Sequence record: PZ513996.1
DNA: 40,893 nucleotides
Strand: one strand, 5' to 3'
From: a phage
Shown: positions 1-40,893 of the stretch, one piece after another
How the letters are laid out: each line of letters starts with the position of its first letter
Position numbering within the stretch: position 1 is the stretch's first letter
Made by a program: the position numbers and the translations under genes
The notes under the pieces: generated by a model
Database searches by the model: none
Told to the model about the DNA's origin: nothing
The model's input: the letters and a program-made list of their open reading frames with translations, nothing else

Positions 1-43
1 ATGGTTGACGCAGGGTTAGTGCTGTGTTATGCTGCGGGTAGTT

Positions 44-67
44 GTATTAGTTGGTGTATTAGTTGTA
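44..67 (+). repeat. short tandem repeat gtattagttgg(t) x2, 12-nt period, in a region without a credible ORF
   Basis: read directly; a second short direct repeat tcttgcctatttt lies at 197..209 and 241..253. Confidence 0.5.
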
Positions 68-264
68 CAGCTTTTAACAATAAGGTGAGTCACAGCCAAT
101 ACACTACCAACACATAAGTGCCTCTGCGTATCTCTGGCAGGACCTGGCTTGGCTGGCTGTCTCTGCGCTCTCTGTTGAGGGTGCGGGAGAGGTTAGTCTT
201 GCCTATTTTGTGGAGCACAGGGAGATGCTGTCCTCTCTGCTCTTGCCTATTTTATCCGCAGTAG

Positions 265-38100: not shown

Positions 38101-38379
38101 CACTTTGGTGTAATAGCACAGCAGGTGCGTGACGTGCTCGTTACGCACGGACTTATGGAGCCTGATGCTACTTCATGTAAGTACGGGTTCCTGTGCCACG
38201 ATGAGTACCCTGAGATGGTGGAACATGACGAGGAAGGTAATGTAAGTGTAATTACTCCTGCAGGAAGTCGTTGGGGTATTCGACCTGACCAGATGTTCTT
38301 CATTGAGATGCTGTACCAGCGTAGAGAGCTTGCCCGTCTAAAGGAGCAGGTAAAATCGCTGGCACATAATAAGGAGTAA
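35131..38379 (+). CDS. tail fiber/tailspike: T7 gp17-like adaptor + Asp-box (sialidase-like) domain + C-terminal intramolecular chaperone; endosialidase-like
   Basis: 1082 aa; N-terminus aligns with T7 gp17 (RIINLAAGKDATDAVNKSQL vs RIVNLANAVDDRDAVPFGQL); Asp-boxes SGDDGQTW and STNSGLTW; C-terminus LDAWADVHIISFKW...THFGVIAQQVRDVL typical of the auto-cleaving chaperone domain. Confidence 0.7.
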   Translation: MAYSWQEQILPAGAQTVPVEINYLDRSYIYLYVNREEVFDFTWDSDTRIRFDKPLDAESTVLIVRRTAKEFLYIMFSEGAAFIKENLDTQNTQFLHLAQELVEGRSIEGFFGTINMNGFRIINLAAGKDATDAVNKSQLDEVSTRVDNIEGAFNGVTSSYPMYFNTTEPTKEFRIALNFTKAAVYINGVCQTPGYSYTIRDNTVILADPVPAGTHVFMRLGEDVLEGGYATTESLAALSNALTRIDGPEVNPEYYHPHWRDSFDVRGWGVAGDAVTDDTAALQAMLAAAAPNQYIDGKGLTFKVTALPDLSRFRNAAFKYERLAGQPLTYVSEGYFEAGLTKITDTPFYNAWTQDKSFVYDNVIYAPFMAGERHGVQNLHVAWVRSGDDGQTWTMPEWLTPIHPNYASGVNYHCMSMGVSNNRLYMLVETRNLSDARRVRAEMWSRPMPYARRPTGGISTVAGDNFATVVLPMHGLKVGDTINFSNSGVTGVSGNTVVRTVVDANTITVPLTNAAASTLTNAGVTWSFGTRFWDCQWEVTLLPGIAYSTNADLAVTETHSFTALEGNAVAVGYHNGDVSPRRLGILYFPDVYNNPGVFERRTVSQEYANDASEPCIRYYDGELYLTTRGTSATSAGSTLARSTNSGLTWEYLRFPNKVHHSNLPFAKVGDELYIFSSERAANEWEADTPDNRYNGNYARTFMCKVNVRNWPSSLDEVQWFNVTDQIYQGNIVNSSVGVGSVCVKDGWLYYLFGGEDFLSPWSIGGNSAKRWYVQDGHPTDLYSYRIKVGPQQHVSRDFKYGAAPNRTVPVSMGVDGLRHVSAPMVFDESVEVNSLRVTGTGHNGIPAVRSEVLLDGDYGQIYKSVPTGNPAQQRLILSGGSGNSAASGAIVQLYGSNHSTPNRAVLYATGGVYTQNNLLPYNDSSVALGGASNRWSTVYAVTGTINTSDGTLKTAPEEVESALLDAWADVHIISFKWLDSLATKGDAARTHFGVIAQQVRDVLVTHGLMEPDATSCKYGFLCHDEYPEMVEHDEEGNVSVITPAGSRWGIRPDQMFFIEMLYQRRELARLKEQVKSLAHNKE

Positions 38380-40893
38380 ATGAACCTTACTCGTATTCGT
38401 GAGCAGCTTCTTACTAGTCCTAATCTTGATGCGCGTATGCGCTACAGCCTGAGCAGTAACGAAGAGTTACTTGCAGGTCTTGCAGATGATAAAGGTCTGG
38501 TTAAGCTGCTGCGTAATACTGAAGTAGAAGGTGCTAGTGCTATTCGTCGTATTGCTCAAACTATCCTTAAAGCATTAGGTGCTAAGGTAGAAGGTAATGC
38601 CTTGAACTCTGTGCTTGATTCCTATGATGCGCTTCTGGATGTAGCTGCTAAAGAGCGTGGTGTTACCCGTTATAAGTCTCAGGCATTATCTGAGTACGGT
38701 GAGTTCGCCGATACGGCTAATGGTGCAGTTAAGCAGTTAGATAGCTTTAAGAAGACGTTCGCTCGCAGCTTTAGCCTGTACGATAACATTGCTGAAGGCT
38801 CTAAAGACCTAGCAGACCTGCTAGTAGCCGACGGCGCAGCAGTAGGTGCACGTCGTCCTTCTGTAGCTGACTATAAGCGTAACCTACAGTTAGAGCTTGA
38901 TGGTGCAGCCTCTGTAGTTGAGAAGGCCATTATCGATTCCCTGCGTGCAGATGGTATTGGTTTACTGGATGCGTTCTTGCAACGTAACAAGTTCAAAGCT
39001 GCTCGTCGTGAGCGTGAGTCTAAACTTGCACAATACCTTGACCAAGCATACTCAGCGGAGACAGCAGGTCGTGAGATTCCTACCCCTCCTCAGGATATTG
39101 CCCCGTTAGTTAAGGCGTATGTAGACTCTGAGTGGGCTACTAAATGGTATGACCATCTCCAGAAGTCTGGACTGGTTGAGGTGGATTCTCAGATTAAGCG
39201 TAGTCCTTACTACTTCCCACGCTCGTACAGCTACGATGCTATTCGTCAGCAGATTAACACTGGCGCGCGTCAGGCTTCTGACTACCGCGACCTGTTCAGT
39301 CAAGCCCTGCGTGATATCTATCCAGATATGACAGCTGAGGTTGCTGGTCGCGTAGCTCGTGAGATGTTCGAAAGCATCTATGATGGTAAGTCTAAGCAGA
39401 CTGGTCCGGCATGGCGTAGTATTCTGGGCGGTGTAGGCAACGAAGTTATCGTTGATGCAATGCGTGCAGCAGGCGTAGCAGACGACCAGATTCGTAACTT
39501 CCTTACTACTAACGTAGCACGCGAAGCGACTCAGACTTCTCGGGTTAAGAACCTGCGTACTCGTAACCGCTTTGACTTGCAGAAGGAGTATGTAGTTAAT
39601 GGCCAGGCTATGCGTATGGCGGATATTCTGGATACTGACGTAGCTAAGCAGATGCAAGGTTATACTAACCGTGTATCAGGTCGTGTAGCATTTGCATACG
39701 CGGGTGTAACTGACTTGAATGCACTGGAAGGTATGATTAACACAGCTAAGTCTACAGTACGCGACCCAGACCGTTATCAGAAGCATGTAGATGATACTAT
39801 CGACTTCATGGTAGGCGCACCTGTTCAGGGTTCAGAAGTTCCGGAGATATTCCGCGCTGCTGGTAACCTTGCCAACGCCACCGTACTTAAGAACTCCGGT
39901 TTGTATCAGCTGGCAGATACTGCGCTTGCTATGAAAGAGTTCGGGATGACCCGAGTACTCCGCAGCATGAAGAAAGAAAAGTGGTGGAAGGAAGCTACAG
40001 CTGTCGCTAAAGACGCTAGTCAATCCGCTCGTCTTGATTCTATCCTGCGTGGTAGCATTCAGAAGGAACTTCGGTTCCGTTGGTTGAACTCTTACGCTGA
40101 TGATAACTTAGACCTTACCCGTAGTTCCCGCTGGTTTAACATCACTCAGAACATCGGTCAGGCTGCACGTCACGTAAACGGTATGGGTCTGGTGCATCGT
40201 CTTCAGACTAACGTTAACGCAGGTATCGTAATGGATGAGCTTAAGCTCATGCTGAACGGAGATGCAGAAGCTACTAAGCGTTTACAGCGTTGGGGTCTTG
40301 ACCCTGAACTTGCTAAGCGTATGCAAGCTGCTGCTAGTCCTGATGTTGATGCTTTACTGCCAGATGACTTACAGCTTCAGCTAGAGATTATTGGTACTCG
40401 TCTAATGGACCATGTTATCCAGCAGATTCGTGTAGGTGAGACTTCTCACTTTGCACAGTTCAGTCCAGTAGGTCGCGTAGTAGTTGGTTACGGTAGCTTT
40501 GCTGTAGCAGGTACTAACAAGATTCTACGTCGTGAATACCGTGATAACGGCTGGATTGGCTTAGCCCATCTCGCTGCGTATCAGTTCCCTTTGATGTACC
40601 TTATTACTCAAGCTCGTTTCGCTGCTGACGGTAAGCAGGAATCAGAAGGTAAGATTATCGCAGAAGCTGTTAAAGCTATGAGTATACTAGGCGGCTTCAG
40701 CTTCGTGACTGATATCTTCAGCGACCAGTCCCCACGTCATAGCCTGACCGCTACTGGATATGCTATGAACATCTTAGGACTGATTCAGAAGGTAGCAGCA
40801 GGAGAAGCAGACCTTAAAGACGTGTCCCGTAGTCTCCCGCTCTTGCAGGAGTTCATGCCTACCCGTGCAATCATTAATAACTTTGGAGATTAA
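38380..40893 (+). CDS. large internal virion protein (T7 gp16-like), C-terminal segment; first 41 codons after ATG duplicate the end of 1828..3213
   Basis: 837 aa; ATG at 38380 replaces ACT of the other copy; nt 38383..38505 identical to 3088..3210. Confidence 0.5.
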   Translation: MNLTRIREQLLTSPNLDARMRYSLSSNEELLAGLADDKGLVKLLRNTEVEGASAIRRIAQTILKALGAKVEGNALNSVLDSYDALLDVAAKERGVTRYKSQALSEYGEFADTANGAVKQLDSFKKTFARSFSLYDNIAEGSKDLADLLVADGAAVGARRPSVADYKRNLQLELDGAASVVEKAIIDSLRADGIGLLDAFLQRNKFKAARRERESKLAQYLDQAYSAETAGREIPTPPQDIAPLVKAYVDSEWATKWYDHLQKSGLVEVDSQIKRSPYYFPRSYSYDAIRQQINTGARQASDYRDLFSQALRDIYPDMTAEVAGRVAREMFESIYDGKSKQTGPAWRSILGGVGNEVIVDAMRAAGVADDQIRNFLTTNVAREATQTSRVKNLRTRNRFDLQKEYVVNGQAMRMADILDTDVAKQMQGYTNRVSGRVAFAYAGVTDLNALEGMINTAKSTVRDPDRYQKHVDDTIDFMVGAPVQGSEVPEIFRAAGNLANATVLKNSGLYQLADTALAMKEFGMTRVLRSMKKEKWWKEATAVAKDASQSARLDSILRGSIQKELRFRWLNSYADDNLDLTRSSRWFNITQNIGQAARHVNGMGLVHRLQTNVNAGIVMDELKLMLNGDAEATKRLQRWGLDPELAKRMQAAASPDVDALLPDDLQLQLEIIGTRLMDHVIQQIRVGETSHFAQFSPVGRVVVGYGSFAVAGTNKILRREYRDNGWIGLAHLAAYQFPLMYLITQARFAADGKQESEGKIIAEAVKAMSILGGFSFVTDIFSDQSPRHSLTATGYAMNILGLIQKVAAGEADLKDVSRSLPLLQEFMPTRAIINNFGD
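38383..38505 (+). repeat. 123-nt exact direct repeat, copy 2 (partner 3088..3210)
   Basis: read directly; downstream sequence diverges (taattgacg vs ctgctgcgt). Confidence 0.9.

Follow-up and report, generated by a model that had tools for sequence, protein, structure and literature searches.

The window analysed here, the whole 40,893-nucleotide stretch of sequence record PZ513996.1, is almost certainly an in-silico concatenation of 59 automated open reading frame (ORF) calls on PQ847473.1, the 42,960-bp record of Escherichia phage vB_EcoP_P64441 (Autographivirales; Autoscriptoviridae; Slopekvirinae). P64441 is a natural lytic Slopekvirinae phage with an endosialidase, and is cited as a natural isolate (Li et al., Virology 2025;609:110570). 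The one-frame tiling of the window is a data-preparation artefact, and the window is not natural DNA.

Single-frame tiling of the window

Stop codons were very unevenly distributed among the plus-strand frames of the window (59 in frame 1, 829 in frame 2 and 1566 in frame 3; the minus frames hold 506, 560 and 1071), whereas the native transcribed strand of PQ847473.1, taken as baseline, has, frame by frame, 902, 743 and 971. Plus frame 1 divides into 59 stop-to-stop segments that cover positions 1 to 40893 with zero remainder, the last closing at base 40893, and every segment opens on a start codon (ATG in 52, GTG in 5 and TTG in 2) that is the codon directly after the preceding stop. GC content by codon phase was 0.572/0.415/0.460 across the window, compared with a flat profile on the native strand (0.485/0.478/0.477). 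A native genome would be expected to spread its genes over three frames and to leave gaps of varying length and small overlaps between them; the window has one frame and zero spacing.

The initial annotation had described a single-frame, zero-spacing tiling of the whole window, which proved to be exact, although its figure of about 70 genes has to be lowered to 59. Five intervals that it had singled out as would-be spacers are indeed in-frame start-to-stop segments (segments 1, 2, 5, 11 and 31, of 117, 147, 126, 96 and 123 nt; Table 1), and its judgement that a shared frame would have a negligible chance of arising is borne out: frame agreement alone has a probability of (1/3)^58, approximately 2e-28, and zero-spaced junctions number 0 of 58 among the same ORFs in their native setting.

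Correspondence with the P64441 record

PQ847473.1 was the sole record with at least 99% identity to the window, and it matched as 26 pieces per window half. The segments are verbatim ORFs of this record: 57 of the 59 are exact substrings (58 segments lie on its minus strand and one on its plus strand), the other two are exact save for one added codon each, and every one of the 40,887 native bases agrees with PQ847473.1 ORFs. Shared gene content includes the RNA polymerase, a split DNA polymerase, the capsid, a gp16-like ejectosome protein, the endosialidase, the terminase and the lysis genes. The BLASTN comparison proposed in the initial annotation thus returned per-gene blocks with the intergenic DNA missing, and no record was found to be collinear with the window across its junctions, as a native genome segment should be; PQ847473.1 itself fits only block by block and in reversed order. 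A 40-mer spanning a window junction gave 0 matches in an IMG/VR scan, but so did a control 40-mer taken from inside a gene of this phage, and the scan therefore carries no weight.

What the window lacks, the record has: 39 gaps (1 to 277 nt) and 19 overlaps (-1 to -44) between the same ORFs, the use of three frames (21/20/17), another block order, and 2,261 additional non-coding bases in 41 intervals. The length of the window is that of the summed ORFs, with overlaps counted double and gaps gone, and the balance closes (40,511 + 2x188 + 6 = 40,893), where 188 is the number of bases from the 19 native overlaps that occur twice in the window. Such duplicated stretches were found; the 44-base duplicate, for example, arises because two DNA-polymerase ORF calls overlap natively (Table 1).

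Table 1. Coordinates of segments, blocks and other features of the window, with their positions in PQ847473.1
Feature	Window position	Strand	PQ847473.1 position	Description
Tile of 59 start-to-stop segments	1-40893	+		PQ847473.1 ORF calls, coding orientation, zero spacing
Block B, segments 1-3	1-1827	+	31562-33648	Moved ahead of the other two blocks
Segment 1	1-117	+		Tiny unannotated ORF call, terminal non-coding region
Segment 2	118-264	+		Tiny unannotated ORF call, terminal non-coding region
Segment 3	265-1827	+	32086-33648	Beta-helix tail fibre/tailspike (tail fiber protein in the record); weak Beta_helix match
Block C, segments 4-51	1828-31752	+	3-31538	Ascending record coordinates
123-bp direct repeat, copy 1	3088-3210	+		Tail of gp16 N-half
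TAA added to segment 4	3211-3213	+	1385..3 (segment 4)	Gene continues past the low end of the linear record
Segment 5 (TTG, 42 codons)	3214-3339	+	1370-1495	Small unannotated call, gap upstream of gp16
Segment 11 (32 codons)	10486-10581	+	8964-9059	Small unannotated call, scaffold-capsid intergenic region
Single-subunit phage RNA polymerase	13624-16074	+		RNA_pol, E=3e-92; Autographivirales hallmark
Segment 31 (GTG, 41 codons)	22441-22563	+	21457-21579 (+)	Only segment called on the other record strand
44-base duplicate	22564-22607	+		Recurs at 24854-24897; native overlap of two DNA-polymerase ORF calls
Block A, segments 52-59	31753-40893	+	33658-42958	
Segment 53 (49 codons)	32308-32454	+	34218-34364	Frame differs from GenBank holin (34190-34438)
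Endosialidase tail fibre (1082 aa)	35131-38379	+		K1-capsule-type depolymerase
ATG added before segment 59	38380-38382	+	42958..40448 (segment 59)	Gene continues past the high end of the linear record
123-bp direct repeat, copy 2	38383-38505	+		Head of gp16 C-half

Only six bases in the window are non-native (one TAA and one ATG), and both codons fall at the coordinate origin of PQ847473.1. Segment 4 ends ...GTTAAG TAA where the native sequence reads ...GTTAAG CTC TAA, with mismatches confined to segment positions 1384-1386, and segment 59 mismatches only in its first three bases, where the native sequence is TCT and spans the record origin. These two genes retain a trace of the source coordinates: their cut ends, since patched, are at 3 and 42958 in the record and fall within a 127-bp duplication of the record ends; the 123-bp direct repeat of the window exists because PQ847473.1 carries this terminal duplication.

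In the record itself, the 127-bp duplication lies inside the gp16-like ejectosome gene, which is annotated as two CDS. Removal of one copy restored a 1,256-aa ORF, the length of gp16 in the related phage vB_EcoP_PAS7 (OQ921331.1), and the duplication appears to be an untrimmed assembly overlap in the public record that splits gp16. A real terminal repeat was considered and rejected, given the intragenic location and the ORF restored by one-copy removal; in a relative, the true terminal repeats sit in non-coding DNA after the tailspike.

The comparison shows four steps from record to window: PQ847473.1 was handled as a linear sequence; each ORF call was excised from start to stop codon and put in its own coding orientation; the ORFs were joined end to end with nothing between them; and the two ORFs overrunning the record ends were cut back to whole codons, one then receiving an artificial TAA and the other an artificial ATG. 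All pieces share one frame because each is a whole number of codons. The calls probably came from a permissive gene finder and not from the GenBank annotation, since there are 59 calls against 53 GenBank CDS and several start sites differ.

Several individual calls illustrate how they relate to the annotation. Segment 31 lies antisense to the first copy of a conserved promoter-proximal structured leader (see below) and is therefore a spurious gene call. Segment 5, which natively overlaps segment 4 by 16 nt, is matched by position in a PAS7 gap that bears no annotation, and 55 nt of it match another gap in inverted orientation; segment 11 had no match in PAS7. The GenBank holin has a PAS7 homologue at 79% identity whereas segment 53, called in a different frame, has none in PAS7; the window holds neither an intact holin CDS (longest piece 149 of 249 nt) nor an intact GenBank CDS 7756-7950. 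Among the larger products, the endosialidase tail fibre showed the domains End_beta_propel (E=1e-197), End_tail_spike and Peptidase_S74 together with an N-terminal Phage_T7_tail.

Block order, deleted regulatory DNA and rival readings

The segments fall into three blocks, ordered B, C, A in the window and C, B, A in the record. Block C begins with the gp16 N-half, internal virion proteins, tail tube, capsid, scaffold and connector, followed by the RNA polymerase, DNA metabolism genes and early genes; Block A contains the endolysin, the wrong-frame ORF in the place of the holin, the spanin and a hypothetical protein, then the large terminase, small terminase, endosialidase tail fibre and gp16 C-half. 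Blocks C and A run in the reverse of transcription order, with PAS7 coordinates falling as window coordinates rise, because 58 of the 59 calls lie on the minus strand of the record and are listed by ascending coordinate. The position of Block B counts against the concatenation as set out above, as B, C, A cannot be obtained by rotating or reverse-complementing the record; rotated-coordinate and lexicographic sorting (of coordinates or indices) were also tried as its source and rejected, neither yielding this order. The odd order does not speak for a biological origin. An extra file-order or shuffling step probably moved this three-gene block to the front. There is a slim chance that the window was designed on purpose, as a 'coding-only', single-frame P64441 stripped of its regulation for use in synthesis or modelling, and is not an accidental by-product of file handling; in neither case is it a natural molecule.

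The block order would also be explained if the CDS had been concatenated from another isolate or assembly, one naturally rearranged so that its tailspike block lies elsewhere. The order is not a rotation of PQ847473.1, receptor-binding modules are mobile among such phages, and segment 3 is without a match in PAS7 at nucleotide or protein level, all of which would suit such an isolate. However, truncation and patching occur exactly at the arbitrary origin of PQ847473.1 and inside its 127-bp duplication, all native bases are identical to that record, the block boundaries sit in intergenic gaps of 23 nt and 9 nt with no ORF truncated, and relatives have the gene order of PQ847473.1, the tailspike being the last gene before the genome end. 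We regard a rearranged source as very improbable.

The deleted DNA bears on a further reading, namely that a phage genome was deliberately refactored or made synthetically, as a design or as a built molecule, with its genes separated and set head to tail. Shine-Dalgarno-like 4-mers at -20 to -4 were present at 15 of 57 window starts, compared with 43 of 58 native starts and a random-position background of 16%. The initial annotation had stated that most starts, that of the capsid included, have no Shine-Dalgarno element; this stands for the starts as a whole but not for the capsid, which has a GAGGA, attributable to chance, 12 nt upstream. Three sigma70-like promoters of the native genome all fall in deleted intervals, as does a terminator-like hairpin after the capsid gene, so that the window retains none of the intergenic regulatory DNA (ribosome-binding sites, promoters and post-capsid terminator) that would be looked for in a native genome. 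Overlapping genes have been parted by duplication of their common bases, as refactoring does, and the sequence is 100% native apart from two non-native codons, both of which fit a designed genome. Against this, promoters, ribosome-binding sites, terminators and terminal repeats are all absent, as are insulating sites and designed spacers, and the gene order is opposite to the order of transcription; a designer would moreover have kept an assembly artefact as two patched 'genes', included an antisense pseudo-ORF and broken the holin. Where a design of the T7.1 type would keep native order and regulatory parts and have designed junctions, the window has zero-length junctions and no added sites. 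Of the two origins offered in the initial annotation, excised CDS joined head to tail is upheld by the verbatim ORFs, and the refactored or synthetic construct, lacking regulatory parts and reversed in order, is not; we rate it as very improbable. A native ultra-compact or polyprotein-like genome, with all genes truly in one frame and stop-start junctions, has nothing but the tiling itself in its favour and can be dismissed, as the identical genes in PQ847473.1 have gaps, overlaps and three frames, relatives also have ordinary spaced or overlapping genes, and two ends bear artificial codons.

Apart from the tiling, the deleted intergenic DNA of the source genome was seen to carry an element, present three times, that combines a host-type promoter with a structured leader RNA, the latter showing strong covariation. 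The promoter sites read TTGACA/TATAGT, and the leader has a length of roughly 130 nt. The leader covariance model matched the window at 22400-22520 on the minus strand (64 bits). No match to the leader was obtained in Rfam, either at the gathering threshold with the whole genome or at E<=1 with copy 1; a blastn 'distant' search with the leader element found only P64441 and PAS7, and the covariance model extended the element to ECO104 4-5-2 and phiKDA1. The structured leader RNA may be undescribed, its only trace in the window being the antisense remnant in segment 31.

With concatenation of ORF calls as the preferred reading, the window should count as processed data, and any conclusion drawn from it on the order or junctions of genes, on operon structure, on the absence of Shine-Dalgarno sites, or on intergenic elements and repeats, the 123-bp repeat among them, would be an artefact. 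The biology of interest sits in the removed intergenic DNA, namely the three-copy promoter and leader element.

Comparison with known systems

PAS7 and Enterobacter phage phiKDA1 (NC_027980.1) have a gene repertoire syntenic with the native P64441 record, and in both gp16 is a single gene. Their genes are ordinarily spaced or overlapping and are transcribed left to right, an order that the window reverses; phiKDA1 also has 267-bp terminal repeats, whereas the window is without genome ends.

In T7.1, the 2005 refactoring by Chan, Kosuri and Endy, overlaps were reportedly parted by duplication with the native coding sequence left verbatim, and in both respects the window is similar. T7.1 is also said to keep gene order, promoters, ribosome-binding sites and terminators and to add unique restriction sites between parts; the window, in contrast, has reversed genes and neither these regulatory elements nor added sites.

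Multi-FASTA CDS exports ('ffn', cds_from_genomic) consist of start-to-stop pieces in coding orientation, listed by ascending coordinate whatever the strand, and include partial genes at contig ends. Standard CDS exports are not known to add ATG or TAA to partial genes or to displace a three-gene block, and the window differs from them in its ATG and TAA patches and its displaced block, both products of extra processing. In piece bounds, orientation, coordinate listing and end partials, the window agrees throughout with such an export joined into one sequence.

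Frame-1 tiling and its source record

Counting stops in every frame of the window revealed 59 in plus frame 1, 829 in plus frame 2, 1566 in plus frame 3 and between 506 and 1071 in the minus-strand frames. The native genome, read along its transcribed strand, contains 902, 743 and 971 stops per frame. When frame 1 was cut at its stops, 59 segments (numbered 1–59) covered bases 1-40893 with zero remainder, each starting (ATG, 52; GTG, 5; TTG, 2) on the codon right after the preceding stop, and a mechanical ORF list of the window was consistent with this tiling. The initial annotation had thus described the one-frame, zero-spacing arrangement correctly, including five would-be spacers that are themselves in-frame start-to-stop segments (117, 147, 126, 96 and 123 nt), although its figure of about 70 genes exceeded the 59 counted. 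It had also judged such frame sharing negligible by chance, in agreement with the value of ~2e-28 obtained for frame agreement alone across the 58 junctions; the tiling is exact and far beyond chance.

Megablast against a phage collection returned a single record at 99% identity or above, PQ847473.1 (Escherichia phage vB_EcoP_P64441, hereafter P64441; 42,960 bp; Autoscriptoviridae/Slopekvirinae), and this comparison, which set a collinear match against per-gene blocks, gave a match fragmented into 26 pieces per window half. Each of the 59 segments was placed on the record by exact string search: 57 are exact substrings, and 58 lie on the minus strand and one (window 22441-22563) on the plus strand. 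On PQ847473.1 these ORFs are distributed over the three frames (21, 20 and 17), and neighbours either leave a gap (39 cases, 1 to 277 nt) or overlap (19 cases, 1 to 44 nt), with zero spacing never found. Missing from the window are 2,261 record bases, spread over 41 intervals, and 188 native overlap bases are present twice; the length accounting closes for every window base (40,511 + 2x188 + 6 = 40,893). Predicted duplicates were found, namely the 44-nt DNA-polymerase overlap (window 22564 and 24854) together with a 123-bp repeat at window 3088-3210 and 38383-38505, which is the trace of an exact 127-bp duplication at the record ends (1-127 = 42834-42960).

Traces of the record origin and of gene order

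An exact 127-bp end duplication is what a k=127 overlap usually leaves when a circular assembly contig has not been trimmed. With one copy removed, two CDS annotated 'peptidoglycan lytic exotransglycosylase' fuse into one 1,256-aa ORF of the same length as gp16 of phage PAS7, a single gene of 3,771 bp of which segments 4 and 59 match overlapping parts. The duplication in PQ847473.1 therefore looks like an untrimmed assembly overlap splitting one gp16-like ejectosome/lytic transglycosylase gene, which would put the true P64441 genome length at 42,833 bp.

Segments 4 and 59 each carry three bases that differ from PQ847473.1: segment 4 consists of record 1385..3 plus an added TAA, where the native continuation is CTC TAA, and segment 59 of an added ATG plus record 42958..40448. 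The two cuts coincide with the arbitrary coordinate origin of the record, with two leftover bases removed per side, keeping whole codons. These features show that gene calling treated the deposited record as linear, and that ORFs running off its ends were trimmed, then artificially completed; neither a natural molecule nor a working design would have such a trace.

The segments follow ascending record coordinates and, since the genes lie on the record minus strand, window order is the reverse of transcription order; in tblastn comparisons PAS7 coordinates drop as window coordinates climb. Each window gene consequently sits after the 3' end of its native downstream neighbour, which accounts for the missing Shine-Dalgarno sites: SD-like 4-mers precede 43/58 native starts but only 15/57 window starts, a share near the background of 16%, in line with the earlier remark that most starts lack them. 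Three calls from record 31562-33648 (segments 1–3) come first, ahead of those from 3-31538 (segments 4–51) and then 33658-42958 (segments 52–59). This is the other circular order of three blocks, unobtainable by rotating or reverse-complementing the record, and PAS7 and phiKDA1 (an Enterobacter phage) have the same gene order as the record (endolysin, tailspike, genome end, early genes). As the truncations lie at the record origin, the block permutation must be later than gene calling.

Gene calls, leader elements and phage type

The 59 window segments compare with 53 CDS in GenBank; seven (1, 2, 5, 11, 14, 18, 31) have no GenBank counterpart, three (32, 40, 56) have different start sites, and GenBank CDS 7756-7950 is missing. 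The window calls are therefore distinct from the GenBank annotation and probably automated. At least segments 14 and 18 have PAS7 matches and may be real small genes. No intact copy of the GenBank holin (82 aa, PAS7 homologue 79% identical) is left in the window. Segment 31 is a spurious ORF on the strand opposite a conserved non-coding leader element. No PAS7 match was found for segments 1 and 2, which lie in the 547 bp of non-coding DNA that separate the tailspike from the first early gene; since phiKDA1-type relatives have their physical genome end and terminal repeats at this position, both are probably spurious. A 32-nt repeat (record 30746-30777 and 31540-31571, 91% identical) was also seen in the early gaps. 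The segment 5 region, upstream of gp16, corresponds to a positionally conserved unannotated gap in PAS7, and a 55-nt part of it (record 1439-1493) has an inverted match of 85% identity to the intergenic gap at 21106-21160.

Coordinates of features in the window, P64441 and related phages
Feature	Window	P64441 (PQ847473.1)	PAS7 (OQ921331.1)	ECO104 4-5-2	phiKDA1 (NC_027980.1)	Remarks
Segments 1 and 2	1-264	31539-32085				39 + 49 codons; unannotated in GenBank
Beta-helix tailspike	265-1827					Separate second receptor-binding protein; last gene
Segment 5	3214-3339					TTG start; unannotated
Pentapeptide-repeat genes	21670-22251; 28015-28551	20716-21029; 27221-27693
Promoter + leader gaps		21348-21619; 28703-28921; 30273-30462				Minus strand
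Leader copies			1085-1213; 2997-3114; 10392-10521	5670-5782; 39126-39236; 40965-41072	2108-2232	phiKDA1 copy single, weaker
Leader trace	22441-22563					Antisense remnant
Split DNA polymerase	22564-24897	21620-23909	7368-9729			Segments 32 and 33
Segment 53	32308-32454	34190-34438 (GenBank holin)				49-codon ORF; frame differs from annotated holin
Endosialidase tail fibre	35131-38379					K1-capsule depolymerase; full; T7-type N-terminal adaptor

The three largest early/middle native gaps each contain a sigma70 promoter close to consensus (TTGACA, 17 nt, TATAGT/TAGAAT) and, after it, a conserved leader of ~130 nt; three copies at syntenic positions occupy gaps without annotation in PAS7. In a plain MAFFT alignment of these six copies, a five-helix structure was 95.9% paired (30–44% in slid controls), with compensatory changes in 16/25 pairs. 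A covariance model detected three further copies in phage ECO104 4-5-2, of which two were seen to follow a full TTGAC(T/A)...TA(T/A)(A/G)(G/A)T promoter, and one in an unannotated early gap of phiKDA1; across the ten copies 23/25 pairs covary, in an alignment that was fitted to the model and is hence biased towards structure. No Rfam match to the element was found. We speculate that it may act in cis, perhaps as a stabiliser of the mRNA 5' end, as a processing site, or as a put-like antitermination RNA with which host polymerase would reach the phage RNA polymerase gene. A GC-rich hairpin (CCCCGC-cttgt-GCGGGG) with a T-run behind it (record 7734-7750, minus strand) lies downstream of the capsid gene and is similar to the strong terminator that T7-like phages have after theirs; it lies with GenBank CDS 7756-7950 in a 277-bp gap missing from the segment 9/10 junction.

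Pfam scans identified a T7-like RNA polymerase, family A DNA polymerase, T7-type terminase, lysozyme and a complete endosialidase tail fibre, independently confirming the phage type. P64441 has two receptor-binding proteins, this fibre, of which only the first ~246 aa match PAS7, and the tailspike. The DNA polymerase is encoded by two ORFs with the same split site and an 8-nt overlap (GenBank calls) in P64441 and PAS7 and by one 2,385-bp gene in phiKDA1, and may represent either a gene split particular to the lineage or a site of frameshifting. Two pentapeptide-repeat genes share ~300 nt of internally periodic DNA (83–85% identity; self-matches at multiples of 15 nt). Two articles (PMC13018314 and PMC12930829) cite P64441 (Li et al., Virology 2025;609:110570) as a phage isolated from nature that infects UPEC.

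Competing explanations and known systems

We are almost certain that the window is a purely computational product of joined ORF calls and not a biological feature. On this reading each call was cut from its start codon to its stop codon, put in coding orientation and placed end to end with the others, giving a single frame because every piece is a multiple of three. Of the two origins put forward in the initial annotation, excised CDS joined head to tail agrees with the 57 exact segments and the two with one added codon each. A naturally rearranged second isolate might account for the block order but is disfavoured by the 100% identity to PQ847473.1 and by patches specific to its origin. The other proposed origin, a physically refactored genome, is very unlikely and was not upheld: the window has no regulatory DNA or genome ends, the terminator-like hairpin falls in a deleted gap, the genes are in anti-transcriptional order, an assembly artefact is kept and patched, a spurious antisense ORF is present and the holin is broken. 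Deliberate coding-only design instead of accident has a very low probability, and even then the window would not be biology. PQ847473.1 itself refutes a truly native one-frame genome.

The window has the properties expected of nucleotide output from a gene caller that has been run together as a single sequence. Its sole likeness to T7.1-type refactored genomes is that overlaps are separated; those genomes keep order and regulatory parts and have designed junctions, all of which the window lacks.
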